DNA from: Escherichia coli
Lineage (GTDB): Bacteria; Pseudomonadota; Gammaproteobacteria; Enterobacterales; Enterobacteriaceae
Assembly (NCBI RefSeq): GCF_011045215.1
Contig: NZ_CP049201.1
DNA length: 64,000 bases
Reading direction: 5' to 3' (one strand)
This document shows positions 2,187 through 64,000 of the stretch, in pieces; position 1 is the first letter of the stretch; each line of letters opens with the position of its first letter. Under the pieces are notes generated by a model that searched no databases, was not told the DNA's origin, and worked only from the letters and a program-made list of their open reading frames with translations. A program made the translations under genes and the position numbers.

Positions 2187-3479
2187 TTAGTGCTGTTCGA
2201 TCAGTTCATCCAGTTTTTTCTGGCTCGCTTGCAGCGTAGTAGAGAGATCGGCTTTACCCACGGTGACGTTATGCACCATTGAACTCACCACGCCAGAACC
2301 CGTCACATCACCCATGCGGGTAAAGTTTTTATCCCCTACTGCGCCAAAGACCTGAATATTTGGCAGTTCACCGATTAGCTGATTCGGTAGTTCACCCAGC
2401 GCCTTAATAACGTCGTTGTCTTTCCAGGTGGCGGTAGTGACAACCGCTTTGTTCACCGGCAGTGCCGCGCCTGGCGACATCATCACCCAGTCGGCAATGT
2501 TGTCCGCCTGCTCCATAAAGGTGACGAATTTTTCTGCTGCTTCCGTTTCTTCGGTCTTTTGTCCGGCGGTAATGGTCAGCGAGGTCAACATGCCGTAGAC
2601 GGCAGAGTTTTTCTCGGTTGGCACCACGAAACCGACGTTTTTCGGGTCGCCTTCTTTAATCACAGCCGGAAGGATATAGGTGGAGTAAATCGCCATCGGC
2701 GCGGTGCCGTTCATAAAGGCGTCTTTCACTTCCATGATGTCGTTAGAACCCGGCATGGTGTTGGCAGCAAGGTCGCGGTAATAGGTCAGCGCCTGCATCA
2801 TCTCTGGTGTATCAAGGGTGATTTTGCCTTCGGCGTTAAAGACGTTGGCCTGGTTGGATAACGCAAACTGGGAGAAGGATTGTTCCGTCAGCACGCTTTC
2901 TGCCGTAGGCAGCGCAATACCGTATTTTTTATTCGCCGGGTCATTCAGTTTCTGTGCAACGTCCAGCAGCTGCTGCCAGTTTTTCGGCTCCTCCAGCCCG
3001 ACTTTTGCCAGCACATCTTTGCGATACCAGATGCCGCCAATCCAGGCGCTGACGGGAACACCGGTCCAGGCACTCCCATCTTCGGTGCGCACAATACGCA
3101 GTACGCCATCGTAAAACGCGCCTTCACCAACGTTGCTGATGACCGTGGCAACCGCCTTGCGATCGATAAGCTGCTCTTTGTCCATAACTTTGGCGTAGTC
3201 ATGGCTGGTTTCGATCACTTCCGGCAGCGAACCGCTACGTGAAAGGGTAATGACTTTAGTGTTATAGGCATCTTCTTCCACGGGCACTTGCTTAACGGTG
3301 ATGCCCGGGTTTTCTTTTTCAAAACGGGCAATCAATTTACTGATAACTGCCTGACGCTCCTGCTCCACCGAAGAATGCATAAATTCGATGGATACATTCG
3401 TTTTATTTTCTTCTTTACAGCCAGAAATCAGGGCGCAGGAAACCAGTGCTGATAACAGCACGATTTTTGATTTAATCAT
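2187..3479 (-). CDS. ycjN: Periplasmic sugar-binding lipoprotein of ABC transporter
   Basis: 430-aa ORF with N-terminal lipoprotein signal (LISGC). Confidence 0.9.
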   Translation of the reverse strand: MIKSKIVLLSALVSCALISGCKEENKTNVSIEFMHSSVEQERQAVISKLIARFEKENPGITVKQVPVEEDAYNTKVITLSRSGSLPEVIETSHDYAKVMDKEQLIDRKAVATVISNVGEGAFYDGVLRIVRTEDGSAWTGVPVSAWIGGIWYRKDVLAKVGLEEPKNWQQLLDVAQKLNDPANKKYGIALPTAESVLTEQSFSQFALSNQANVFNAEGKITLDTPEMMQALTYYRDLAANTMPGSNDIMEVKDAFMNGTAPMAIYSTYILPAVIKEGDPKNVGFVVPTEKNSAVYGMLTSLTITAGQKTEETEAAEKFVTFMEQADNIADWVMMSPGAALPVNKAVVTTATWKDNDVIKALGELPNQLIGELPNIQVFGAVGDKNFTRMGDVTGSGVVSSMVHNVTVGKADLSTTLQASQKKLDELIEQH

Positions 3480-5382: not shown

Positions 5383-5697
5383 TTAACCTTTGACCTTCGG
5401 CATTGCGATGTCTTTCAGGCCACCGGCGTTCTCAACGTGGGTATATCCCATCTCGCTAAGGATCTCTTTTGCCTGCCCTGACTGGCGTCCGGCATTGCAA
5501 TACACTTTCACGGTGTCGTTTTTATCGGGAACGGCGGTGGCAATGCGCTCTTTCACTTCCTTCAGGGGAATATTGATGGCCCCCTGAACGTGCTCTTGCT
5601 TATACTGCTCTGGAACACGAACATCGATCCAGTGTTCAGCGGCAAAAACGGGCAGTGAAAACACCAGTGCCAGAGCAAGTAAGCCTTTTTTAAACAT
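5383..5697 (-). CDS. pspE: Periplasmic rhodanese (thiosulfate sulfurtransferase)
   Basis: 104-aa ORF with signal peptide and rhodanese active-site region (YCNAGRQS). Confidence 0.93.
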   Translation of the reverse strand: MFKKGLLALALVFSLPVFAAEHWIDVRVPEQYKQEHVQGAINIPLKEVKERIATAVPDKNDTVKVYCNAGRQSGQAKEILSEMGYTHVENAGGLKDIAMPKVKG

Positions 5698-5771
5698 GTA
5701 AGCGTCCTTCTATGGATGAAAATTGCTATCCATTATACGCCTGAGATTTAACAATTTTTGCGAAACTCCCC

Positions 5772-5993
5772 TCACCTTTTATAACGCTGTGCCAGTTTAT
5801 TAGCAGCCCGACTTAACAGCGGTTCCAGCGCCACAGCCAGCAACATTTTCAGCGGTCGGCGAGCAACTGATTTTATCGCCCAGCCCGCCACACCCGCCGG
5901 GCCATAGCGCAGTGCGGTAAGAAGTACCAGCTTGCCTGCTAATTTGAAACCAGGCTTCACCTTTTGCCCGGCCTGTTGCCAGCGAGTATTCAT
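5772..5993 (-). CDS. pspD: Phage shock protein D
   Basis: ORF trimmed to [11 protein letters not shown] start (73 aa); immediately downstream of pspC. Confidence 0.88.
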
Positions 5994-6001
5994 AACTTTC
6001 C

Positions 6002-6361
6002 TCACAGTTGACGGAAACGGCTACGTAACGTGAAAGTATCGGAAGTGACATAACGTTCCATCTCGCGTAAACGCGTTTCACTTGCCGCCAGTTCACGGTC
6101 GACTTCATCCAGCAATTCGCTGCTGGAAGGTAGCTGCTCACCAAAGGCCATGTTGTCCGGCATTGGATCAAGCGCAAATGACAAAATGATGTAAGCAACC
6201 AGGGTAAACAGCGCCAGACCGAAGAAAATCGACAGCACCACCAGGATACGCACCAGTTTTACCGGTACATCAAAATAGTTGGCAATCCCGGCGCAGACGC
6301 CACGGACCATGCCCTGCTGTGGAATACGCCATAATTTTTTATTGAGATTAATGCCCGCCAT
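6002..6361 (-). CDS. pspC: Phage shock protein C
   Basis: 119-aa ORF with single TM segment; start overlaps pspB stop. Confidence 0.93.
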
Positions 6362-6585
6362 TAGCGATCCCTCCAGTTCGGATGTTCTGCATCAAGAATA
6401 GATTCCAGCGCCTGAATACGTTCGCGCATCCGTTTTGCTTCATCAGCCAGTTGCGCTAATCGCTGCTGCTCACTTTGCGACAATTCACTGCGACCAGAAC
6501 GATTGCTGTAATGCAGCCATAACCAGATCGGTAAAACAAACAGCACAAAAATGGTTAACGGAATAGCCAGAAATAGCGCGCTCAT
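6361..6585 (-). CDS. pspB: Phage shock protein B
   Basis: 74-aa ORF with N-terminal TM helix. Confidence 0.93.
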   Translation of the reverse strand: MSALFLAIPLTIFVLFVLPIWLWLHYSNRSGRSELSQSEQQRLAQLADEAKRMRERIQALESILDAEHPNWRDR

Positions 6586-6638
6586 AAGTACTCCTTAGAC
6601 GATGAGCGGCGGCGCGTTCGGACGCCGCCTGGATGTTA

Positions 6639-7379
<741 letters not shown>

Positions 7380-7473
7380 TTATCTTTTTGATTTATAAAG
7401 ATCTGATTGAAGATTCAACAGCAACATGCCAGGATGAATTAGCGAATTACACTAACAAGTGGCGAATTTCATC

Positions 7474-8451
7474 ATGGCAGAATACAAAGATAATTTACTC
7501 GGTGAGGCGAACAGCTTTCTCGAAGTGCTGGAACAGGTTTCGCATCTCGCGCCGCTGGACAAACCTGTGCTCATCATCGGCGAGCGCGGCACCGGTAAAG
7601 AGCTGATCGCCAGCCGCCTGCATTATCTCTCCTCCCGTTGGCAAGGGCCGTTTATTTCCCTTAACTGCGCGGCGTTAAATGAAAATCTGCTGGATTCCGA
7701 ACTGTTTGGTCACGAAGCGGGCGCTTTTACCGGTGCGCAAAAACGTCATCCAGGAAGATTTGAACGTGCCGACGGCGGTACGCTATTTCTTGATGAACTC
7801 GCTACAGCACCGATGATGGTGCAGGAAAAATTATTGCGCGTGATTGAGTACGGTGAACTGGAGCGTGTTGGCGGCAGCCAGCCATTGCAGGTGAATGTGC
7901 GGTTGGTATGCGCGACGAATGCCGATCTCCCGGCGATGGTCAATGAAGGTACTTTTCGCGCTGACCTGCTCGACCGGCTGGCTTTCGATGTAGTGCAACT
8001 GCCGCCCCTGCGCGAGCGCGAAAGCGACATTATGCTGATGGCAGAACACTTTGCCATTCAGATGTGTCGGGAAATCAAGCTGCCTCTGTTCCCGGGTTTT
8101 ACCGAGCGCGCCAGAGAAACATTGCTGAATTATCGTTGGCCGGGAAATATTCGTGAATTGAAAAACGTGGTGGAACGTTCAGTGTATCGCCACGGCACCA
8201 GCGATTATCCGCTTGATGACATCATTATTGATCCCTTTAAACGGCGTCCACCTGAAGAAGCCATCGCCGTTTCAGAAAACACTTCGCTTCCAACACTGCC
8301 GCTGGATTTACGTGAGTTTCAGATGCAGCAGGAAAAAGAGTTGCTGCAACTCAGTTTGCAACAAGGGAAATATAACCAGAAGCGCGCAGCTGAATTGCTG
8401 GGGTTAACCTATCATCAGTTCCGCGCGTTGTTGAAAAAGCACCAGATTTAG
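7474..8451 (+). CDS. pspF: Sigma-54 enhancer-binding activator of the psp operon
   Basis: AAA+ sigma-54 activator sequence (GERGTGKE, GAFTGA motifs); start trimmed to MAEYKDNLL giving 325 aa. Confidence 0.95.
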   Translation: MAEYKDNLLGEANSFLEVLEQVSHLAPLDKPVLIIGERGTGKELIASRLHYLSSRWQGPFISLNCAALNENLLDSELFGHEAGAFTGAQKRHPGRFERADGGTLFLDELATAPMMVQEKLLRVIEYGELERVGGSQPLQVNVRLVCATNADLPAMVNEGTFRADLLDRLAFDVVQLPPLRERESDIMLMAEHFAIQMCREIKLPLFPGFTERARETLLNYRWPGNIRELKNVVERSVYRHGTSDYPLDDIIIDPFKRRPPEEAIAVSENTSLPTLPLDLREFQMQQEKELLQLSLQQGKYNQKRAAELLGLTYHQFRALLKKHQI

Positions 8452-48655: not shown

Positions 48656-50551
48656 TTACCAGCCACCACCGCCTCCGCCACCCGCGCCGCCGCCAGAACC
48701 ACCACCGGAATAGCTCCGCCCCAACAAACTGGTATAGGCCCCGCAACTCAGGTGCGTCTGTAATGAGAATAAAACGCCACTACGGGCAATTTCCGGGGCG
48801 CTAACAGCCGCTGTGAGTGATGGGGTGATACGTGCTGCCCATTCTCTTCCAAGATTTGCTGAGACTGCCCAACCTAGCAACGCGTAATCCAGTTTCCGTG
48901 TTTCCCCTTTCCGCCGCCGCCCACTGTGTGTTGCCGCCTCTTTACGCGCAAGATAGTTAACGATAGCTTCACCGTGGGCATAACGTTGCTGCCCAGTTTG
49001 GGTAAACTTTGGCAGAAAAATATACCCCATACCAGTGAGATAACCGGTCAGGAAAACAGCGCTAAAATAACCCGCTGACATATACCAGTAAAAGAATACA
49101 TCTCCGACATTGATATAGAGAGAATAAAAGGCCACGCCTGAACAAATCAGCGGTAAAAACAAAGTGATGATTACACGATTAACGCAAGGCTTGTCATCAT
49201 CGCGGGCAAACAAAAGCTCAAGGGAACAAAATAAAAAAGGAAGAAGCCAGCAGATCATAATAAACATATCGCCCACCAGACTCATTCCTGCCCAGCCTAC
49301 AGGACTCAGGTTACCGTAGAGAATGACCGCCAATATTGCCAGTCCACCCCATTGCAAAAACATATCAGGCCGGTAAAACGAAGACTTTTTACGCGGCAGA
49401 TAAAATTTCTGCATTCGTAAAAATGCCCTGCGTAACACTCTGTTTCGCCCACCGCTCAGAATAACCTTATCGCTTTTGCGAAATAACGCGTCCAGCAATA
49501 ACTGCTCTGCGGGCAGTAATTCAGCATTATTTCTGGTCGCGCCTTCATTAACACGAATTAGGGTTTGCTGGTTCTTGTCATACTGATCTTCCAGATGAAT
49601 TTTTCCTTTCACAATCAGATTTACGATATCAGCACAAAAACCTTTATCGTCATAAACCAGCTTCGCATCGAGACGTAACATGCCGGGCGTGTAATCGGGT
49701 GGAATGACATCAGTTTCCATCACTTCCACCGGCGTAAATTGCGGCCTGCGCTTCCAGAGATATAACCATCCACACGCCAGGAACAGGCACGGAAACCAAA
49801 TTAACAACGATGACGTAGAAGGTAAAAGAAGATGGCTGAAAATATTCGTCGTTTGTGGTACCGGGGCATTACCAAGTAAAGCGTGAGGCCAGCGGTAGAG
49901 TACCGTGAAATCTTCACGATAAAACGGATCGCGGGATTCAATTCTTCCGTCCTCAAGGATGCGGCCATTTCGATATGTGTCGCCCTCTTCTCCAGTAAAG
50001 AGATCGATTTCGCTAAATGGATTACCCGCGATATCAGGGAACTTGAGTGAAAATCGGGTCTTATAGATTTCAAACGGCCAGTGGTTACCAGTCACGTTCC
50101 AGATTAACAGATCTGAATCTCCCTCACGCTGGAAAGCATTTTTAACCTGATAATGAATTTGATAATGATAGTCGCCTTGAGGCAAGAAACGTTGTTTATC
50201 GCCCACGACAATACTCATTAACCCGATATGCCAGTCATGATGCCAGGGTTCAGGAATACCATCACGGGTGACGCCAACAATATGATAGTTCAGCAGTGCA
50301 GCGTCCCCATTAGGCTGCATCCATAGTCGTGGTAAATCACGATAAAATCCGTGCTTAATCTGCTGATTTCGCGCCTGAAAATGAATGTTCTCTTTGATGT
50401 CGAGCACCCCATCCGGTTGCAGAGTGGCTTCAACATCAAAGAGCGAGATCCCTTCTTCATAAGAAGGCATCTCCGTGTTTTTCGCATAACTTAACGAAGA
50501 GAAAAAAAGCCCAACTATCAATAGCAAAATGCAGCGAAACTTCCCTGCCAT
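48656..50551 (-). CDS. yciQ: DUF2207 membrane protein
   Basis: 631-aa ORF with signal peptide, multiple TM segments and a Gly-rich C-terminus. Confidence 0.88.
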   Translation of the reverse strand: MAGKFRCILLLIVGLFFSSLSYAKNTEMPSYEEGISLFDVEATLQPDGVLDIKENIHFQARNQQIKHGFYRDLPRLWMQPNGDAALLNYHIVGVTRDGIPEPWHHDWHIGLMSIVVGDKQRFLPQGDYHYQIHYQVKNAFQREGDSDLLIWNVTGNHWPFEIYKTRFSLKFPDIAGNPFSEIDLFTGEEGDTYRNGRILEDGRIESRDPFYREDFTVLYRWPHALLGNAPVPQTTNIFSHLLLPSTSSLLIWFPCLFLACGWLYLWKRRPQFTPVEVMETDVIPPDYTPGMLRLDAKLVYDDKGFCADIVNLIVKGKIHLEDQYDKNQQTLIRVNEGATRNNAELLPAEQLLLDALFRKSDKVILSGGRNRVLRRAFLRMQKFYLPRKKSSFYRPDMFLQWGGLAILAVILYGNLSPVGWAGMSLVGDMFIMICWLLPFLFCSLELLFARDDDKPCVNRVIITLFLPLICSGVAFYSLYINVGDVFFYWYMSAGYFSAVFLTGYLTGMGYIFLPKFTQTGQQRYAHGEAIVNYLARKEAATHSGRRRKGETRKLDYALLGWAVSANLGREWAARITPSLTAAVSAPEIARSGVLFSLQTHLSCGAYTSLLGRSYSGGGSGGGAGGGGGGGW

Positions 50552-50578
50552 AGTCTTCCATCCGTGGAACGCAATTTG

Positions 50579-51199
50579 TTATAAGAAAGGCTTCACATCA
50601 CCTACGCCTTCACGCACCACGACCGGCGTATCATCGGTAAGATCAATAACCGTTGTTGGTTTCTGCCCGAGATAGCCACCGTGAATAATCAAATCCACCT
50701 GTTTTTCCAGACGGTCTTTAATTTCTTCCGGGTCCGATTCGGTAAATTCGCTGCCTGGCAGCATTAGCGAAGTGGAAAGCATCGGTTCGCCCAATGCTTC
50801 AAGCAACGCCTGCGCAATCGGGTTAGAAGGCACACGCATACCGATGGTTTTGCGTTTTTCCTGCAACAGACGGCGTGGCACTTCTTTCGTCCCTTTCAGG
50901 ATGAAGGTGTAGTTACCCGGCGTGTTGTTTTTCATCAAACGAAACGCAACGTTATCGACAAATGAATAGGTCGAGAGTTCAGAAAGATCGCGACACATCA
51001 GGGTAAAGTTGTGACCGTCCGGCAGCTGGCGAATACGACAAATACGCTCCATGGCGTTTTTATCTTCAATTTTACAGCCGAGCGCATAGCCGGAATCAGT
51101 TGGATAAACAATCACCCCGCCTTTGCGCACGATCTCCACCGCCTGGTTGATCAGACGTTGCTGTGGGTTATCTGGATGAATATAAAAAAACTGGCTCAT
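50579..51199 (-). CDS. yciO: YrdC/Sua5-family protein
   Basis: ORF trimmed to MSQFFYIHPDNPQQR start (206 aa). Confidence 0.92.
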   Translation of the reverse strand: MSQFFYIHPDNPQQRLINQAVEIVRKGGVIVYPTDSGYALGCKIEDKNAMERICRIRQLPDGHNFTLMCRDLSELSTYSFVDNVAFRLMKNNTPGNYTFILKGTKEVPRRLLQEKRKTIGMRVPSNPIAQALLEALGEPMLSTSLMLPGSEFTESDPEEIKDRLEKQVDLIIHGGYLGQKPTTVIDLTDDTPVVVREGVGDVKPFL

Positions 51200-52077
51200 A
51201 ATTCCCTCTCTGTGGTGTTCTGCGGCTGTTCCCATAGCTGCCAGACGCCTTCAACGCCTGCGGGCAGCCAGAGTTTACGACCCAGTTCGATCCACGGGCA
51301 TGGCTGATGAAAATCAGATCCTTGTGATGCCCATAAATGATGCTGACGCGCAAGTGTCGCCAGCTGGGTGCGTTCATTGGGCGATTGCTGGCACTGCGCG
51401 ACTTCCATCGCGTCGCCGTCGTGTTCGGCAAAATGCGCAACCAATCTTTTCAGCCATTTAGCACTAAGATTGTACCGCCCAGGATGAGCTAGCACCGCCT
51501 TACCGCCAGAATGATGAATGACATCAATAGCTTGTTCTATTGTACACCACTGTGGCGGAACGTATCCGGTTTTCCCGCGCGCCAGATACTTTTTAAAGAC
51601 ATCCGCCATTGAACTGGCTTTGCCGCACTCAACAAGGAAACGCGCAAAATGACCGCGCGTCACTGCGCCGCCCTGCGCCAGTCGTTGTGCGCCTTCCAGC
51701 GCCCCAGGTATTTGCGCTTTTTCAAGTCTTTCGGCAATTTGCTGCGCCCGCTGATTGCGCCGTTCTGTCTGCTGCGCGAGGAACTCACACATTAGCGGAT
51801 GAGTAATATCAATATTCAGCCCGACAATATGAATTTCATGATTTTCCCAGACCGTGGAAATTTCCACGCCGGGAATAAGATTCAGCGCCAGTCCCGAACG
51901 TGAAATTTCCTCTCTTGCTGGCGCGATTGCAGCTGTGGTGTCATGGTCGGTGATCGCCAGGGTGCCGACGCGCATCTCGACTGCACGGTGCACCAATGCT
52001 TCTGGCGTCAGGCAGCCATCGGAAGCTGTGGTATGGCTATGCAGATCGTAAATCACTGCGTAATTCGTGTCGCTCAA
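51196..52077 (-). CDS. trpH: PHP-domain 5'-3' exoribonuclease
   Basis: 293-aa ORF with PHP motif (YDLHSHTTASDG). Confidence 0.92.
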   Translation of the reverse strand: MSDTNYAVIYDLHSHTTASDGCLTPEALVHRAVEMRVGTLAITDHDTTAAIAPAREEISRSGLALNLIPGVEISTVWENHEIHIVGLNIDITHPLMCEFLAQQTERRNQRAQQIAERLEKAQIPGALEGAQRLAQGGAVTRGHFARFLVECGKASSMADVFKKYLARGKTGYVPPQWCTIEQAIDVIHHSGGKAVLAHPGRYNLSAKWLKRLVAHFAEHDGDAMEVAQCQQSPNERTQLATLARQHHLWASQGSDFHQPCPWIELGRKLWLPAGVEGVWQLWEQPQNTTEREL

Positions 52078-52153
52078 GGCGCACTCCCGTTCTGGATAAT
52101 GTTTTTTGCGCCGACATCATAACGGTTCTGGCAAATATTCTGAAATGAGCTGT

Positions 52154-52190
52154 TGACAATTAATCATCGAACTAGTTAACTAGTACGCAA
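52154..52190 (+). promoter_or_regulatory. trp promoter with TrpR operator
   Basis: TTGACA (52154-52159), 17-nt spacer, TTAACT (52177-52182); palindromic operator CGAACTAGTTAACTAGTACG. Confidence 0.95.
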
Positions 52191-52214
52191 GTTCACGTAA
52201 AAAGGGTATCGACA

Positions 52215-52259
52215 ATGAAAGCAATTTTCGTACTGAAAGCTTGGTGGCGCACTTCCTGA
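52215..52259 (+). CDS. trpL: trp operon leader peptide (14 aa, tandem Trp codons)
   Basis: ATG AAA GCA ATT TTC GTA CTG AAA GCT TGG TGG CGC ACT TCC TGA = [14 protein letters not shown]. Confidence 0.95.
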   Translation: [14 protein letters not shown]

Positions 52260-52299
52260 AACGGGCAGTGTATTCACCATGCGTAAAGCAATCAGATAC

Positions 52300-52329
52300 C
52301 CAGCCCGCCTAATGAGCGGGCTTTTTTTT
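52300..52329 (+). terminator. trp attenuator (3:4 terminator hairpin)
   Basis: CAGCCCGCC-TAAT-GAGCGGGC followed by eight T residues. Confidence 0.95.
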
Positions 52330-52350
52330 GAACAAAATTAGAGAATAACA

Positions 52351-53913
52351 ATGCAAACACAAAAACCGACTCTCGAACTGCTAACCTGCGAAGGCGCTTA
52401 TCGCGACAACCCGACTGCGCTTTTTCACCAGTTGTGTGGGGATCGTCCGGCAACGCTGCTGCTGGAATCCGCAGATATCGACAGCAAAGATGATTTAAAA
52501 AGCCTGCTGCTGGTAGACAGTGCGCTGCGCATTACAGCTTTAGGTGACACTGTCACAATCCAGTCCCTTTCCGGCAACGGCGAAGCCCTGCTGACACTAC
52601 TGGATAACGCCCTGCCTGCGGGTGTGGAAAATGAACAATTACCAAACTGCCGTGTGCTGCGCTTCCCCCCTGTTAGTCCACTGCTGGATGAAGACGCTCG
52701 CTTATGCTCCCTTTCGGTTTTTGACGCTTTCCGCTTATTGCAGAATCTGTTGAATGTACCGAAGGAAGAACGAGAAGCCATGTTCTTCGGCGGCCTGTTC
52801 TCTTATGACCTTGTGGCGGGGTTTGAAGATTTACCGCAACTGTCAGCGGAAAATAACTGCCCTGATTTCTGTTTTTATCTCGCTGAAACGCTGATGGTGA
52901 TTGACCATCAGAAAAAAAGCACCCGCATTCAGGCCAGCCTGTTTGCTCCGAATGAAGAAGAAAAACAACGTCTCACTGCTCGCCTGAACGATCTTCGCCA
53001 GCAACTGACCGAAACCGCGCCACCGCTGCCGGTGGTTTCCGTGCCGCATATGCGTTGTGAATGTAACCAGAGCGATGAAGAGTTCGGTGGCGTAGTGCGT
53101 TTGTTGCAAAAAGCGATTCGCGCTGGAGAAATTTTCCAGGTGGTGCCATCTCGCCGTTTCTCTCTGCCCTGCCCGTCACCGCTGGCGGCCTATTACGTGC
53201 TGAAAAAGAGTAATCCCAGCCCGTACATGTTTTTTATGCAGGATAATGATTTCACCCTGTTTGGCGCGTCGCCGGAAAGTTCGCTCAAGTATGACGCCAC
53301 CAGCCGCCAGATTGAGATCTACCCGATTGCCGGAACACGTCCACGCGGTCGTCGTGCCGATGGTTCACTGGACAGAGACCTCGACAGCCGCATCGAACTG
53401 GAAATGCGTACCGATCATAAAGAGCTTTCTGAACATCTGATGCTGGTGGATCTCGCCCGTAATGATCTGGCACGCATTTGCACCCCCGGCAGCCGCTACG
53501 TCGCCGATCTTACCAAAGTTGACCGTTACTCTTACGTGATGCACCTGGTCTCCCGCGTGGTCGGTGAGCTGCGCCACGATCTCGACGCCCTACACGCTTA
53601 CCGCGCCTGTATGAATATGGGTACGTTAAGCGGTGCGCCGAAAGTACGCGCTATGCAGTTAATTGCCGAGGCTGAAGGTCGTCGCCGCGGCAGCTACGGC
53701 GGCGCGGTAGGTTATTTCACCGCGCATGGCGATCTCGACACCTGCATTGTGATCCGCTCGGCGCTGGTGGAAAACGGTATCGCCACCGTGCAAGCCGGTG
53801 CTGGCGTAGTCCTTGATTCTGTTCCGCAGTCGGAAGCCGACGAAACCCGTAATAAAGCCCGCGCTGTACTGCGCGCTATTGCCACCGCGCATCATGCACA
53901 GGAGACTTTCTGA
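52351..53913 (+). CDS. trpE: Anthranilate synthase component I
   Basis: 520-aa [31 protein letters not shown]. Confidence 0.97.
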
Positions 53914-55508
53914 TGGCTGACATTCTGCTGCTCGATAATATCGACTCTTTTACGTACAACCTGGCAGATCAGTTGCGCAGCAATGGGCATAACGTGGTGA
54001 TTTACCGCAACCATATTCCGGCGCAAACCTTAATTGAACGCCTGGCGACGATGAGCAATCCGGTGCTGATGCTTTCTCCAGGACCCGGTGTGCCGAGCGA
54101 AGCTGGTTGTATGCCTGAACTGCTTACCCGCCTGCGCGGTAAGCTGCCTATTATTGGCATTTGCCTCGGTCATCAGGCAATTGTCGAAGCTTACGGGGGC
54201 TATGTCGGTCAGGCGGGCGAAATTCTCCACGGTAAAGCGTCGAGCATTGAACACGACGGTCAGGCGATGTTTGCCGGATTAACAAACCCATTGCCGGTGG
54301 CGCGTTATCACTCGCTGGTTGGCAGTAACATTCCGGCAGGTTTAACCATCAATGCCCATTTTAATGGCATGGTGATGGCAGTACGTCACGATGCGGATCG
54401 CGTTTGTGGATTCCAGTTCCATCCGGAATCCATTCTTACTACCCAGGGCGCTCGCCTGCTGGAACAAACGCTGGCCTGGGCGCAGCAGAAACTAGAGCCA
54501 ACCAACACGCTGCAACCGATTCTGGAAAAACTGTATCAGGCACAGACCCTTAGCCAACAAGAAAGCCACCAGCTGTTTTCAGCGGTGGTACGTGGCGAGC
54601 TGAAGCCGGAACAACTGGCGGCGGCGCTGGTGAGCATGAAAATTCGCGGCGAGCACCCGAACGAGATCGCCGGAGCAGCAACCGCGCTACTGGAAAACGC
54701 CGCGCCGTTCCCGCGCCCGGATTATCTGTTTGCCGATATCGTCGGCACCGGCGGTGACGGCAGCAACAGCATCAATATTTCTACCGCCAGTGCGTTTGTC
54801 GCCGCGGCCTGTGGGCTGAAAGTGGCGAAACACGGCAACCGTAGCGTCTCCAGTAAATCTGGTTCGTCCGATCTGCTGGCGGCGTTCGGTATTAATCTTG
54901 ATATGAACGCCGATAAATCGCGCCAGGCGCTGGATGAGTTAGGTGTTTGTTTCCTCTTTGCGCCGAAATATCACACCGGATTCCGCCACGCGATGCCGGT
55001 TCGCCAGCAACTGAAAACCCGCACCCTGTTCAATGTGCTGGGGCCATTGATTAACCCGGCGCATCCGCCGCTGGCGTTAATTGGTGTTTATAGTCCGGAA
55101 CTGGTGCTGCCGATTGCCGAAACCTTGCGCGTGCTGGGGTATCAACGCGCGGCGGTGGTGCACAGCGGCGGGATGGATGAAGTTTCATTACACGCGCCGA
55201 CAATCGTTGCCGAGCTGCACGATGGCGAAATTAAGAGCTATCAGCTCACCGCAGAAGACTTTGGCCTGACACCCTACCACCAGGAGCAACTGGCAGGCGG
55301 AACACCGGAAGAAAACCGTGACATTTTAACACGCTTGTTACAAGGTAAAGGCGACGCCGCCCATGAAGCAGCCGTCGCGGCGAACGTCGCCATGTTAATG
55401 CGCTTGCATGGCCATGAAGATCTGCAAGCCAATGCGCAAACCGTTCTTGAGGTACTGCGCAGTGGTTCCGCTTACGACAGAGTCACCGCACTGGCGGCAC
55501 GAGGGTAA
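53913..55508 (+). CDS. trpD: Anthranilate synthase component II / anthranilate phosphoribosyltransferase
   Basis: 531-aa bifunctional ORF; start overlaps trpE stop. Confidence 0.97.
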
Positions 55509-56870
55509 ATGATGCAAACCGTTTTAGCGAAAATCGTCGCAGACAAGGCGATTTGGGTAGAAGCCCGCAAACAGCAGCAACCGCTGGCCAGTTTTCAGAA
55601 TGAGGTTCAGCCTAGCTCGCGACATTTTTATGATGCGCTACAGGGTGCGCGCACGGCGTTTATTCTGGAGTGCAAGAAAGCGTCGCCGTCAAAAGGCGTG
55701 ATCCGTGATGATTTCGATCCAGCACGCATTGCCGCCATTTATAAACATTACGCTTCGGCAATTTCGGTGCTGACTGATGAGAAATATTTTCAGGGGAGCT
55801 TTGATTTCCTCCCCATCGTGAGCCAAATCGCCCCGCAGCCGATTTTATGTAAAGACTTCATTATCGACCCTTACCAGATCTATCTGGCGCGCTATTACCA
55901 GGCCGATGCCTGCTTATTAATGCTTTCAGTACTGGATGACGACCAATATCGCCAGCTTGCAGCCGTCGCCCACAGTCTGGAGATGGGTGTGCTGACCGAA
56001 GTCAGTAATGAAGAGGAACTGGAGCGCGCCATTGCATTGGGGGCAAAGGTCGTTGGCATCAACAACCGCGATCTGCGCGATTTGTCGATCGATCTCAACC
56101 GTACCCGCGAGCTTGCGCCGAAACTGGGGCACAACGTGACGGTAATCAGCGAATCTGGCATCAATACTTACGCTCAGGTGCGCGAGTTAAGCCACTTCGC
56201 TAACGGCTTTCTGATTGGTTCGGCGCTGATGGCCCATGACGATTTGCACGCCGCCGTGCGTCGGGTGTTGCTGGGCGAGAATAAAGTGTGTGGCCTGACG
56301 CGTGGGCAAGATGCTAAAGCTGCTTATGATGCGGGGGCGATTTACGGTGGGTTGATTTTGGTTGCGACATCACCGCGTTGCGTCAACGTTGAACAGGCGC
56401 AGGAAGTGATGGCTGCGGCACCGTTGCAGTATGTTGGCGTGTTCCGCAATCACGATATTGCCGATGTGGTGGACAAAGCTAAGGTGTTATCGCTGGCGGC
56501 AGTGCAACTGCATGGTAATGAAGATCAGCTGTATATCGATACGCTGCGTGAAGCTCTGCCAGCACACGTTGCCATCTGGAAAGCATTAAGCGTCGGTGAA
56601 ACCCTGCCCGCCCGCGAGCTTCAGCACGTTGATAAATATGTTTTAGACAACGGCCAGGGTGGAAGCGGGCAACGTTTCGACTGGTCACTATTAAATGGTC
56701 AATCGCTTGGCAACGTTCTGCTGGCGGGGGGCTTAGGCGCAGATAACTGCGTGGAAGCGGCAAAAACCGGCTGCGCCGGGCTTGATTTTAATTCTGCTGT
56801 AGAGTCGCAACCGGGCATCAAAGACGCACGTCTTTTGGCCTCGGTTTTCCAGACGCTGCGCGCATATTAA
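55509..56870 (+). CDS. trpC: Indole-3-glycerol phosphate synthase / phosphoribosylanthranilate isomerase
   Basis: 453-aa [24 protein letters not shown]. Confidence 0.97.
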
Positions 56871-56881
56871 GGAAAGGAACA

Positions 56882-58075
56882 ATGACAACATTACTTAATC
56901 CCTATTTTGGTGAGTTTGGCGGCATGTACGTGCCACAAATCCTGATGCCTGCCCTGCGCCAGCTGGAAGAAGCTTTTGTCAGCGCGCAAAAAGACCCTGA
57001 ATTTCAGGCCCAGTTTAACGACCTTTTGAAAAACTATGCCGGACGCCCAACCGCGCTGACCAAATGCCAGAACATTACGGCTGGCACGAACACCACGCTG
57101 TACCTGAAGCGTGAAGATTTGCTGCACGGCGGCGCACACAAAACCAACCAGGTGCTCGGTCAGGCTTTGCTGGCGAAGCGAATGGGTAAAACCGAAATCA
57201 TCGCCGAAACCGGGGCTGGTCAGCATGGCGTGGCCTCTGCCCTTGCCAGCGCCCTGCTCGGCCTGAAATGCCGCATTTATATGGGGGCCAAAGACGTCGA
57301 GCGCCAGTCACCCAACGTTTTTCGTATGCGCTTAATGGGTGCGGAAGTGATCCCGGTGCATAGCGGTTCCGCAACGCTGAAAGATGCCTGTAACGAGGCT
57401 CTGCGCGACTGGTCCGGCAGTTATGAAACCGCGCACTATATGCTGGGTACCGCAGCCGGCCCACATCCTTACCCGACTATTGTCCGTGAGTTCCAGCGGA
57501 TGATTGGCGAAGAAACCAAAGCGCAGATTCTGGAAAGAGAAGGTCGCCTGCCGGATGCCGTTATCGCCTGTGTTGGCGGCGGTTCGAATGCCATCGGTAT
57601 GTTTGCAGATTTCATCAACGAAACCAACGTCGGCCTGATTGGTGTGGAGCCTGGTGGTCACGGTATCGAAACTGGCGAGCACGGCGCACCGCTAAAACAT
57701 GGTCGCGTGGGCATTTATTTCGGTATGAAAGCGCCGATGATGCAAACCGAAGACGGGCAGATTGAAGAATCTTACTCCATCTCCGCCGGACTGGATTTCC
57801 CGTCTGTCGGCCCACAACACGCGTATCTTAACAGCACTGGACGCGCTGATTACGTGTCTATTACCGATGATGAAGCCCTTGAAGCCTTCAAAACGCTGTG
57901 CCTGCACGAAGGGATCATCCCGGCGCTGGAATCCTCCCACGCCCTGGCCCATGCACTGAAAATGATGCGCGAAAACCCGGAAAAAGAGCAGCTACTGGTG
58001 GTTAACCTTTCCGGTCGCGGCGATAAAGACATCTTCACCGTTCACGATATTTTGAAAGCACGAGGGGAAATCTGA
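56882..58075 (+). CDS. trpB: Tryptophan synthase beta chain
   Basis: 397-aa [28 protein letters not shown]. Confidence 0.97.
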
Positions 58076-58881
58076 TGGAACGCTACGAATCTCTGTTTGC
58101 CCAGTTGAAGGAGCGCAAAGAAGGCGCATTCGTTCCTTTCGTCACGCTCGGGGATCCGGGCATTGAGCAGTCATTGAAAATTATCGATACGCTAATTGAA
58201 GCCGGTGCTGACGCGCTGGAGTTAGGTATCCCCTTCTCCGACCCACTGGCGGATGGCCCGACCATTCAAAACGCCACTCTGCGCGCCTTTGCGGCAGGTG
58301 TGACTCCGGCACAATGTTTTGAAATGCTGGCACTGATTCGCCAGAAACACCCGACCATTCCCATTGGCCTGTTGATGTATGCCAATCTGGTGTTTAACAA
58401 AGGCATTGATGAGTTTTATGCCCAGTGCGAAAAAGTCGGCGTCGATTCGGTGCTGGTTGCCGATGTGCCTGTTGAAGAGTCCGCGCCCTTCCGCCAGGCC
58501 GCGTTGCGTCATAATGTCGCACCTATCTTCATCTGCCCGCCAAATGCCGATGACGACCTGCTGCGCCAGATAGCCTCTTACGGTCGTGGTTACACCTATT
58601 TGCTGTCACGAGCGGGCGTGACCGGCGCAGAAAACCGCGCCGCGTTACCCCTCAATCATCTGGTTGCGAAGCTGAAAGAGTACAACGCTGCACCTCCATT
58701 GCAGGGATTTGGTATTTCCGCCCCGGATCAGGTAAAAGCAGCGATTGATGCAGGAGCTGCGGGCGCGATTTCTGGTTCGGCCATTGTTAAAATCATCGAG
58801 CAACATATTAATGAGCCAGAGAAAATGCTGGCGGCACTGAAAGCTTTTGTACAACCGATGAAAGCAGCGACGCGCAGTTAA
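58075..58881 (+). CDS. trpA: Tryptophan synthase alpha chain
   Basis: 268-aa [31 protein letters not shown]. Confidence 0.97.
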
Positions 58882-58888
58882 TCCCACA

Positions 58889-58915
58889 GCCGCCAGTTCC
58901 GCTGGCGGCATTTTA
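58889..58915 (+). terminator. trp operon terminator after trpA
   Basis: GCCGCCAG-TTCCG-CTGGCGGC followed by ATTTT. Confidence 0.8.
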
Positions 58916-59261
58916 ACTTTCTTTAACGAAGCCGGAAAAATCCTAAATTCATTTTATATTTATCTTTTTACCGTTTCGCTTACCCCTGTCGAACGTCAAC
59001 TTACGTCATTTTTCCGCCCAACAGTAATATAATCAAACAAATTAATCCCGCAACATAACACCAGTAAAATCAATAATTTTCTCTAAGTCACTTATTCCTC
59101 AGGCAATTGTTAATATATCAAGAACGTTCCTCATAATATATTTTCCCACTTTCTTCTCGTTACGCTTAATTTGACTAATTCTCATTAGCGACTAATTTTA
59201 ATGAGTGTCGACACACAACACTCATATTAATGAAACAATGCAACGCAACGGGAGAAATAAC

Positions 59262-59441
59262 ATGGCCGAACATCGTGGTGGTTCAGGAAATTTCGCCGAA
59301 GACCGTGAGAAGGCATCCGACGCAGGCCGTAAAGGCGGTCAGCATAGCGGCGGTAATTTTAAAAATGATCCGCAACGCGCATCTGAAGCGGGTAAAAAAG
59401 GCGGTCAACAAAACGGTGGTAATAAATCAGGTAAATCCTGA
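59262..59441 (+). CDS. yciG: Small Gly-rich stress protein (KGG repeat)
   Basis: ORF trimmed to MAEHRGGSGNFAED start (59 aa), GGAG RBS 7 nt upstream. Confidence 0.88.
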   Translation: MAEHRGGSGNFAEDREKASDAGRKGGQHSGGNFKNDPQRASEAGKKGGQQNGGNKSGKS

Positions 59442-59526
59442 TTCACCGTTAATTATTAATATCAGCTGATAAAGATAATTGCATCTGCGGGCCGTATGGC
59501 TCGCAGTGATTCCACTGGAGAAAAAT

Positions 59527-61826: not shown

Positions 61827-62403
61827 ATCGAGGATGATTGCCGCTAATCGTCATCTCTCTGATTGAGAGTAAATCATCCAAGTTATTCAGCTCTTGCTTC
61901 ATCTCCCGCTGGCGGCGATAAATCTCGTCATTGCGATCGACCTGCGCCTGAACCATTGCAGTAAGCAGCTCATCCAGTTGTTGCATTGACAACTTTACCT
62001 GCTGATTTTCCGCATCGCGCCATACCATGGTTTTCCGTGCCGTGACTGATTTTGCTGATATCACCACCGGGTAAAGACGGGCCATCGAATCCGGTCCCCC
62101 GTTCCAGCTATGACCGTTCCATTCAAAAATGAATGGCTGCGCCTCCTGCTCTGTACGCCATGCTTCAATTTCCCGGCGTTTGGCTGCTTTTGCTGCTTCC
62201 AGCATCTCTGGCGTGACGGTGAACGGCGTTATTTCTCCCCACTTGCCGCTTTGCAGTTCCTGCCAGACTCGCTGCCCTGTCTCTGCTGTATCCGTGGCAG
62301 TTGCCGTATACGGAACCGGTTCATCCATGCCATCAAACAACACCCCGCAGTCAATCGCGCCATTTTCAAGATAACGCGCATTTTCGATGCGTTTTATTTC
62401 CAT
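61825..62403 (-). CDS. Putative tail fibre assembly/chaperone protein
   Basis: 192-aa ORF (ATG at 62403, AGGTG RBS) starting 8 nt after the stf stop; MEIKRIENARYLENGAIDCGVLFDG...; not the lambda Tfa family as far as I can judge. Confidence 0.5.
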   Translation of the reverse strand: MEIKRIENARYLENGAIDCGVLFDGMDEPVPYTATATDTAETGQRVWQELQSGKWGEITPFTVTPEMLEAAKAAKRREIEAWRTEQEAQPFIFEWNGHSWNGGPDSMARLYPVVISAKSVTARKTMVWRDAENQQVKLSMQQLDELLTAMVQAQVDRNDEIYRRQREMKQELNNLDDLLSIREMTISGNHPR

Positions 62404-62410
62404 AAAACAC

Positions 62411-63835
62411 CTACGCAATACGTATGAACAAACCAATCATGACACTGGCTGACCCGGCAGACCCGAGTTCATCGCCTGACAGTGCACGATATGACCCCGG
62501 CATACCACCACCAGAACCCCGCACATATACGGAAACGCTGCCGTTATATCCAACCCCGCTACCGGTCGTGCCGTAACACATAAATTCAACCGCACTCAGG
62601 CGTGACCCCGGATAACTGTAACCGCGCTTTATCCGGCGGTCGGTGTCTGCGTCTCCCTTACCGTTATAAGCCGCCAGTACAAGACTGCCTGCACCGTACC
62701 AGCCGTCCGTGGTACCGGGAGCAATACCGGACAGAAGAGAGATAATGTCCTGTGAGGTAATCTTCAGATTTTCCCAGCCAGTCAGATAACCATTACCTGT
62801 TGTCCAGTAGCGGCTGTAATAAACATCGCCATTGATACCGTAGAAAATAATGGCCTTTGGTGTATATCGCGGTTCCGGTGGATTATTGCGTGCCTCAACC
62901 CACCGGATGCTGACCACCCCGTTAAACAACACACCTCCGGATATGATTTTACTGCCACCCTCAACAAAATATTCACCCGGCGTCGCATTCCTTACCCATG
63001 CCAGAAAATCATCCTCTGTGTTAAAACGGATGCGTTCTGCGGGCAGAAAAATATGCCCAAAACCAAATGCGCCAGGTGTCGCCAGACGGCCTTCAGTCCG
63101 GTCGCGAATGTCGCTCTGTGGCGTCATTGTGGCTGCGCTTTTCAGTCCAAGATTATCACGGGATTCCTGCTGAGCCTCTTCACCTTCATCAGCCAGCTCT
63201 GATAAACGATTCGCCGTTTTCAGTGTCGCAGATAACGCGGTGTCAATATCCTCCCTGACATGCTCTGCATCAGATGCAGCCTGTTTAGCAGCTTCAGCGT
63301 CCTTTTTTACCTCCTCGGCGGCATTCTCAACCTGTGAGACCAGATTTTCGGCCTGTTGTTTACCCTCCGCAACCGCGTCGGCGTTCTGCTGAACACCTTC
63401 CGCCAGTTTTTTTACCTCTTCTTTTTCCCGAGCGGCAGCGTCTGCATGTTGCCCTGCCTGTCGTTCGCTTTCTGTTGCAGTTTCCGCGCTCTGCTGCGCC
63501 TGCGCCACCAGTTCTTCGAACCGCTTAACAACATCCGGCTTCAGGTCGCCTTCATCGAGGGCAGTCAGAAAGTCGTTCAGCGTGCCAGGCTTTGAGTCGT
63601 CGTAAACCGAAATATCACCGACACAGTATTCCCTTTCAATACACGACCGAAGATAAACGTCATATTTTCCGGTCTGAGCTTCAAAAGCATATTCTCCTGC
63701 CGGACCTGTCACCACTGTCGCCACCGTTCTCATGACCACTGCGGATGTATTCTGTCTGGCTTTCAGAATAATATGGTATCCGGACATGGGGAGTCCCGCG
63801 CCATCCGTCAGCACACCCGAAATTAATACAGACAT
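62411..63835 (-). CDS. Side tail fibre protein (lambda Stf-like N-terminus, Ala-rich coiled-coil middle, Gly-rich C-terminal domain)
   Basis: 474-aa ORF MSVLISGVLTDGAGLPMSGYHIILKARQNTSAVVMRTV...VYDDSKPGTLNDFL aligns by eye with lambda Stf MAVKISGVLKDGTGKPVQNCTIQLKARRNSTTVVVNTV...VYEDSQPGTLNDFL. Confidence 0.85.
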   Translation of the reverse strand: MSVLISGVLTDGAGLPMSGYHIILKARQNTSAVVMRTVATVVTGPAGEYAFEAQTGKYDVYLRSCIEREYCVGDISVYDDSKPGTLNDFLTALDEGDLKPDVVKRFEELVAQAQQSAETATESERQAGQHADAAAREKEEVKKLAEGVQQNADAVAEGKQQAENLVSQVENAAEEVKKDAEAAKQAASDAEHVREDIDTALSATLKTANRLSELADEGEEAQQESRDNLGLKSAATMTPQSDIRDRTEGRLATPGAFGFGHIFLPAERIRFNTEDDFLAWVRNATPGEYFVEGGSKIISGGVLFNGVVSIRWVEARNNPPEPRYTPKAIIFYGINGDVYYSRYWTTGNGYLTGWENLKITSQDIISLLSGIAPGTTDGWYGAGSLVLAAYNGKGDADTDRRIKRGYSYPGSRLSAVEFMCYGTTGSGVGYNGSVSVYVRGSGGGMPGSYRALSGDELGSAGSASVMIGLFIRIA

Positions 63836-64000
63836 TTTTATTTCCTGATTCAGAAAACATTAACCAAAATAATTGACGCCTTTTTTCTTGCCACTGGCTT
63901 TCCCCTTTGCAGAAATATCCGTGGCCAGCGACAGATTCAGCGAAAATCCCTGCACCGGTGACAACGAAAATTCCACTGACTCTGCCTGCCAGTTATGGTC

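Follow-up and report, generated by a model that had tools for sequence, protein, structure and literature searches.

Is a one-base departure from the textbook leader of the tryptophan operon a natural allele of Escherichia coli, a laboratory marker or an error, and would it be expected to change attenuation? The question is raised by the trpL gene in a 64,000-nucleotide stretch of E. coli DNA (RefSeq assembly GCF_011045215.1, contig NZ_CP049201.1), here called the window and numbered from its first base. A first-pass annotation, made from the sequence of the window, had pointed out that codon 9 of trpL reads GCT (Ala) rather than GGT (Gly) and that the change creates a HindIII site. In our assessment, with a probability of about 0.86, this is an ordinary trp leader-attenuator with a naturally segregating minority trpL allele that is derived, old, moved by recombination and most likely neutral or nearly so.

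The window carries a classic trp promoter-operator-leader-attenuator

Features lie on the plus strand unless stated otherwise. A -35 element (TTGACA, 52153-52158) and, after a 17-bp spacer, a -10 element (TTAACT, 52176-52181) were read from the sequence. Following the well-characterized trp promoter and operator of E. coli, we take 52153-52181 to be the trp promoter and a palindrome at about 52166-52188, which overlaps it, to be the TrpR operator; the known transcription start (AAGTTCACG...) presumably places +1 at 52189. The consensus promoter scan does not list this promoter, because TTAACT lacks the A required at position 2. With numbering from 52189, the base under study (52240) is nt +52, the Trp codons are nt +54 to +59, and the trpE ATG at 52351 is nt +163.

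The leader-peptide ORF spans 52215-52259 (ATGAAAGCAATTTTCGTACTGAAAGCTTGGTGGCGCACTTCCTGA) and comprises 14 codons on translation. Its tandem Trp codons (TGG TGG, 52242-52247) overlap segment 1 of the attenuator. The Rfam covariance model for the attenuator RNA (RF00513, Trp_leader) matched 52236-52329 over its full length (model positions 1 to 100), scoring 91.4 bits against a gathering score of 41 (E = 2.9e-20). ViennaRNA folds predicted the 1:2 (pause/anti-antiterminator) hairpin at 52242-52279, corresponding to nt +54 to +91. The attenuator terminator, segments 3:4, occupies 52302-52329. According to a terminator scan, its stem (52302-52322) has seven pairs, six of them G-C, followed by TTTTTTT, and the Rfam consensus helix agrees. 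This intrinsic terminator, with its U run, sits just upstream of the trpE ATG. When nt 40 to 70 were forced to be unpaired in a transcript of nt 1 to 125, in which segment 4 has not yet been made, the 2:3 antiterminator was predicted in both alleles, with nt 74 to 86 pairing with nt 107 to 119.

Downstream, trpE, trpD, trpC(F), trpB and trpA are all intact as ORFs (52351-58881). They are equal in length to their K-12 counterparts and have no internal stops. The two sets differ at 176 nucleotides, 158 of them at third codon positions (90%), with 16 amino-acid changes, a divergence that looks to be of the purifying-selection type. The window thus holds the classic arrangement, and it has in common with K-12 trpL (b1265; RF00513) the promoter, the operator, the 14-codon leader, the alternative 1:2, 2:3 and 3:4 hairpins, the terminator and the place before trpEDCBA.

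On the other side of the promoter, the divergent neighbor of the trp leader is rnm/yciO/yciQ in every E. coli examined. A sigma-70-like site on the minus strand (52144-52116; TTCAGA, 17 nt, TATGAT) is directed towards rnm and away from trpL. It is a candidate divergent rnm promoter and overlaps the sequence immediately preceding the trp -35 element.

A single transversion separates the leader from that of K-12

Across the 273-nt intergenic-plus-leader stretch, K-12 and the window are one base apart, with G in K-12 and C in the window at +52. The annotated MG1655 gene (NC_000913.3, trpL b1265) was retrieved and reads ...AAAGGTTGG... / ...CTGAAAGGTTGGTGG..., with GGT (Gly) at codon 9; the reference leader given in the first-pass annotation was therefore correct. 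Within the trpL ORF the only change is the G-to-C transversion at 52240, which makes codon 9 (52239-52241) GCT (Ala) and produces AAGCTT at 52237-52242. Sequence and translation both bear out the codon and the HindIII site as originally described. What the window alone has, compared with K-12, is Ala-9, the HindIII site and two extra predicted pairs at the foot of 1:2. The site itself is not statistically notable. AAGCTT occurs seven times in the window, against 18.6 ± 4.5 expected from shuffles, and HindIII sites are if anything under-represented.

The base had also been placed in attenuator segment 1, and this requires correction. In the RF00513 alignment, 52240 falls on model position 5, within the 5' flank that stays unpaired; pairing in the model begins 4 nt further downstream, at 52244. 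The base thus adjoins segment 1 on its 5' side and lies outside the conserved helices.

Ala-9 is a real minority allele in natural E. coli

An allele census was carried out with a 61-mer centered on 52240 by exact matching to 5,422 complete E. coli chromosome records. The G allele (GGT) was present in 5,037 records (92.9%). The C allele (GCT) was present in 322, or 5.9%, a figure that is not a population frequency, as the genome collection is biased towards outbreak lineages. A 71-mer query again gave a C-allele count of 322. The 63 remaining records differ otherwise in the 61-mer, at least one of them (strain 23S01245-7) combining GCT with S14P, and the GCT frequency in the collection is bounded between 5.9% and 7.1%. 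The original claim had been made to depend on GCT being absent from K-12 and from most natural isolates; K-12 and about 93% of the records carry GGT.

Carriers of the C allele include O104:H4 outbreak strains, 55989, O145:H28, O121:H19, O169:H41, O157:H16, E. coli W and its derivatives KO11FL and LY180, ATCC 8739, and TR01 (labelled O157:H7). Human, cattle, pig, poultry, dog, food and water isolates are all represented, from many hosts and countries. In all carriers examined, TrpL is WP_001386774.1, and in GGT strains it is WP_001700591.1. The former, annotated as "trp operon leader peptide" in O104:H4, O145:H28, O169:H41, ECC-1470 and others, is identical to the peptide of the window, and the DNA at 52140-52350 is identical as well, whereas the flanking rnm and trpE haplotypes of these carriers differ from those of the window. 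The Ala-9 allele is thus already known, in that RefSeq lists its peptide and hundreds of genomes carry it. A literature search on the variant peptide, on trpL polymorphism and on the Shigella dysenteriae trp leader found nothing relevant.

Strain 23S01245-7 (NZ_OZ197100.1, trpL at 3006-3050) represents a third leader-peptide allele, G9A + S14P (WP_112917701.1). Its S14P T-to-C change falls at the equivalent of window position 52254, inside segment 1.

The first-pass annotation had considered two origins, natural variation among strains and an engineered marker. That the HindIII site was introduced as a marker, or that 52240 is a sequencing or assembly error, might be entertained when a convenient restriction site arises in a classic cloning target, but the probability that we attach to this is vanishingly small. 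Both alleles occur in independent natural genomes, and the C at 52240 is common to 322 independent complete ones. The 211 nt around it (52140-52350) match many natural isolates at 100% identity and contain neither linker nor scar, and the haplotype around it agrees with that of natural carriers. The low number of HindIII sites across the window also speaks against a marker. Because the same allele recurs in hundreds of natural genomes and its flanks match natural isolates, the marker and error readings are refuted, and of the two origins first proposed only the natural one stands. In the operon downstream, the 90% share of third-position differences and the lack of stops relative to K-12 argue for a natural lineage and not noise.

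The plasmid collection gave 11 matches to the trp leader, comprising mislabelled chromosomes or chromosome fragments and Klebsiella chromosomal trp leaders; no vector was among them. The PLSDB records CP054249.1, NZ_OL790696.1, NZ_CP141089.1, CP125156.1 and others are multi-megabase sequences or chromosome fragments misfiled as plasmids.

The C allele is derived and lies on several flanking haplotypes

Representatives of four other Escherichia species (E. albertii, E. whittamii and two more) all have GGT and a Gly-9 leader. Since all four carry G, the C at 52240 is, on the evidence of these sequences, derived within E. coli.

To place the allele on its backgrounds, 3.1 kb around the leader was aligned for the window, 11 other carriers (including 23S01245-7), five non-carriers and outgroups. 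The 273-nt intergenic-plus-leader stretch showed zero to two differences among the E. coli of the alignment, and in the 17-sequence panel the only variable site in the trpL ORF besides 52240 was 52254. The nearest informative flanking sites, 52060 and 52410, lie about 170 to 180 bp from 52240, one on each side. Each forms all four gametes with it. For 52060 and 52240 these are G-C in the window, A-C in O104:H4, A-G in K-12 and G-G in O157:H7; for 52410 and 52240 they are C-C in the window, T-C in O104:H4, T-G in K-12 and C-G in APEC O18. The carriers have at least four flanking haplotypes, found in O104:H4/ECC-1470/HB-Coli0, in O145:H28/214-4/PRO_A1462, in O157:H16/88COLEC and in O169:H41. The simplest reading of these sequence patterns is that one old mutation was shuffled by recombination among backgrounds, with recurrent mutation as a less simple alternative.

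Mosaicism extends beyond the leader. Between K-12 and O145:H28, 266 of 11,480 aligned columns show differences, which are grouped in blocks, and the trp region of the window resembles different strains in different segments. When parts of the window (1-24000, 40000-64000 and 50500-59500) were compared with 5,426 complete RefSeq E. coli genomes, none matched at 99% or more. The best matches were 98.8% with OkiPb01695 (1-24000) and 98.4% with O145:H28 (trp operon). The window belongs to a natural, somewhat divergent mosaic lineage and shows no sign of manipulation.

Several further features of the flanks were observed. At 52039 and 52045, in the 5' end of rnm (minus strand), the window has A, whereas 16 of 16 other E. 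coli and four of four other Escherichia have G; within the panel compared, these bases are private to the lineage of the window. The gene yciQ (48656-50551, minus strand) is a presence/absence polymorphism adjoining the trp operon. The window, K-12, O145:H28 and O157:H7 possess the gene, and O104:H4, ECC-1470, HB-Coli0, O26 and O111:H8 lack it, with rluB abutting yciO. The gene is frameshifted in O157:H16 Santai and 23S01245-7 and truncated beside an IS3 element in 88COLEC. Towards the end of the window (about 61900-64000), many E. coli genomes lose their match at about 61.9 kb, and the match annotations include "prophage tail fiber N-terminal domain-containing protein." Beyond yciE/ompW there seems to be the start of a variable prophage segment.

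Predicted RNA structure suggests little effect on attenuation

The leader, 141 nt in full, was folded with ViennaRNA for both alleles. The core 1:2 and 3:4 helices had pair probabilities of at least 0.999 in either case. The alleles were predicted to differ at the foot of 1:2. Only in the C allele do G51-C52 (52239-52240) pair with G93-C94 (52281-52282), the 51:94 and 52:93 pairs each having a probability of 0.70, whereas in the G allele nt 51 to 53 pair with nt 44 to 46 instead. Considered as an isolated hairpin, 1:2 is about 3 kcal/mol more stable with the C allele (MFE of -20.6 kcal/mol for C52 versus -17.5 to -17.8 kcal/mol for G52). In the whole 141-nt leader, the MFE was -47.6 kcal/mol for C52 versus -46.9 kcal/mol for G52 and the ensemble energy was -49.60 versus -49.02 kcal/mol, a net change of at most 0.6 kcal/mol. 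The gap narrows to roughly this value because the G allele compensates with the 44-46:51-53 helix. The suggestion of the first-pass annotation that the change could slightly alter 1:2 pairing therefore survives as a prediction, though from a position outside segment 1.

In the explanation that we favor, the G-to-C change at +52 replaces Gly with Ala at codon 9, the HindIII site is incidental, and attenuation would be expected to proceed with the C allele as it does in K-12. Stalled at the tandem Trp codons, a ribosome would mask both segment 1 and nt +52; with segment 1 masked, 2:3 would form and transcription would read through. With ample Trp, the ribosome would reach the stop codon, 3:4 would form and transcription would terminate. 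When nt 40 to 70 were masked in imitation of the stalled ribosome, the energies of the two alleles were identical, both for the first 125 nt (-17.82 kcal/mol) and for all 141 nt (-29.50 kcal/mol). When the ribosome was placed at the stop codon instead (nt 54 to 83 masked), the alleles were about 0.55 kcal/mol apart, in the opposite direction.

It might be argued that the Ala-9 allele tunes attenuation, either through a stronger foot of 1:2 or by leaving peptidyl-tRNA-Ala instead of -Gly in the P site while the ribosome awaits Trp-tRNA, so that basal readthrough could shift, or attenuation could be relieved at a different Trp level. The two gained G-C pairs, with their roughly 3 kcal/mol in the isolated hairpin and 0.6 kcal/mol in the free leader, lend this some plausibility, as does the persistence of the C allele and its spread into several lineages. 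We nevertheless regard tuning as unlikely. In the established model, RNA polymerase pauses at about +92, when +93 and +94 are untranscribed, and the extra pairs need precisely these two bases. While the ribosome is stalled at the Trp codons, nt +52 lies beneath it and the folding energies are equal. The ribosome-at-stop difference is small, the overall difference between the full leaders does not exceed the error of the nearest-neighbor parameters, and other enterobacteria have Ser at this position. Since the extra pairs require +93/+94 and the energies do not differ under the stall mask, C52 could, in these models, act only in an untranslated leader, which terminates anyway. The gain of about 3 kcal/mol predicted for the isolated hairpin, which could matter for such untranslated transcripts, is a point against neutrality. 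The effect of Ala-9 on attenuation, as modeled, is most likely negligible or almost none.

The residue before the Trp codons varies among genera

Variation between species bears on the same point. Escherichia and Leclercia have Gly before Trp-Trp. Klebsiella pneumoniae (MKMHFITLHSWWRTS), Enterobacter sp. R1, Dryocola and two Cedecea species have Ser there, and a Hyphomicrobiales metagenome-assembled genome (MAG) has Arg, in a leader that precedes an anthranilate-synthase ORF. The contig scan behind these comparisons used a strict pattern (TGGTGGCGCACNTCCTGAAA) that missed Salmonella, Citrobacter and similar genera, and its sample is small. The TrpL peptides of other Enterobacteriaceae have the WWRTS ending before the stop, the attenuator architecture of the window and a small residue before the Trp pair, while their N-terminal halves have diverged from that of the window. 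Enterobacter, Cedecea and Dryocola end in SWWRTS and Leclercia in GWWRTS, where the window has Ala instead. A small residue such as Ala at codon 9 is, to judge from these sequences, within the tolerated range. Neither the residue before the Trp codons nor nt +52 is tightly constrained in the trp attenuator.

The leader-like ORF of the Hyphomicrobiales MAG (JAPLPC010000441.1, 5355-5419) reads MSTPVRNSRRWWRTS and closes with WWRTS and a stop, the enterobacterial C-terminal motif in an alphaproteobacterium. Its DNA, TGGTGGCGCACCTCCTGAAA, is nearly as in enterobacterial trpL. It lies about 150 nt upstream of the anthranilate-synthase ORF (5551-7605; Chorismate_bind, E = 1e-61). A peptide with this ending, MIATIAWWRTS before the stop, is encoded in Bosea sp. 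117, with no trpE seen downstream.

Taken with the folding predictions, this between-species variation makes functional neutrality of the Ala-9 allele the most likely reading. What is a little unusual is to find a tolerated amino-acid change in an E. coli trpL ORF that is otherwise almost invariant.

Possible roles in trans

The attenuator yields products that could act away from the operon. In E. coli, according to reviews, the released attenuator RNA, rnTrpL, destabilizes dnaA mRNA in an Hfq-dependent manner and represses other mRNAs as well (PMC12029325; PMC12612679). In Sinorhizobium meliloti, where the trp attenuator likewise has a 14-residue Trp-containing leader peptide (PMC6614838; 10.1101/606483), that peptide, peTrpL, functions in trans in a manner sensitive to single residues (10.1101/606483). 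These precedents raise the idea that the codon-9 change alters a trans-acting product, either the sRNA rnTrpL, with its reported action in E. coli on the mRNAs of dnaA, sanA and mhpC, or the leader peptide of 14 residues. We consider this highly improbable. Even where its function is kept, peTrpL shows little sequence conservation apart from the Trp residues (10.1101/606483). Peptide functions in trans have been shown only in Alphaproteobacteria (the S. meliloti system), unlike E. coli trpL, and nothing ties codon 9 to such roles; a literature search yielded no trans function of the E. coli trpL peptide. For the RNA, RNAduplex gave uninformative full-length duplexes of whole rnTrpL with dnaA mRNA, at about -87 kcal/mol for both alleles. 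Overproduction of Ec-rnTrpL left trp mRNAs unaffected in E. coli (PMC6614838).

A more far-reaching proposal is that Ala-9/C52 is non-neutral by any of these routes (the 1:2 foot, the P-site residue or rnTrpL), that it resets basal trp expression or an rnTrpL target, and that selection rather than drift spread it among lineages such as O104:H4, O145:H28, O121:H19 and E. coli W. We hold this to be very unlikely.

Significance of the Ala-9 allele

Our preferred reading remains that of an ordinary attenuator with a natural, most likely neutral or nearly neutral allele, and the overall importance of that allele is small. It has a practical side, in that anyone cloning or restriction mapping the trp region from E. 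coli W, KO11FL, LY180, ATCC 8739 or O104:H4 should expect a HindIII site in the leader and Ala-9 in the peptide. The textbook leader peptide is that of K-12 and of the majority allele and is not the sole allele of E. coli. The Ala-9 allele provides a natural demonstration of the loose constraint on nt +52 and on the residue that precedes the Trp codons.
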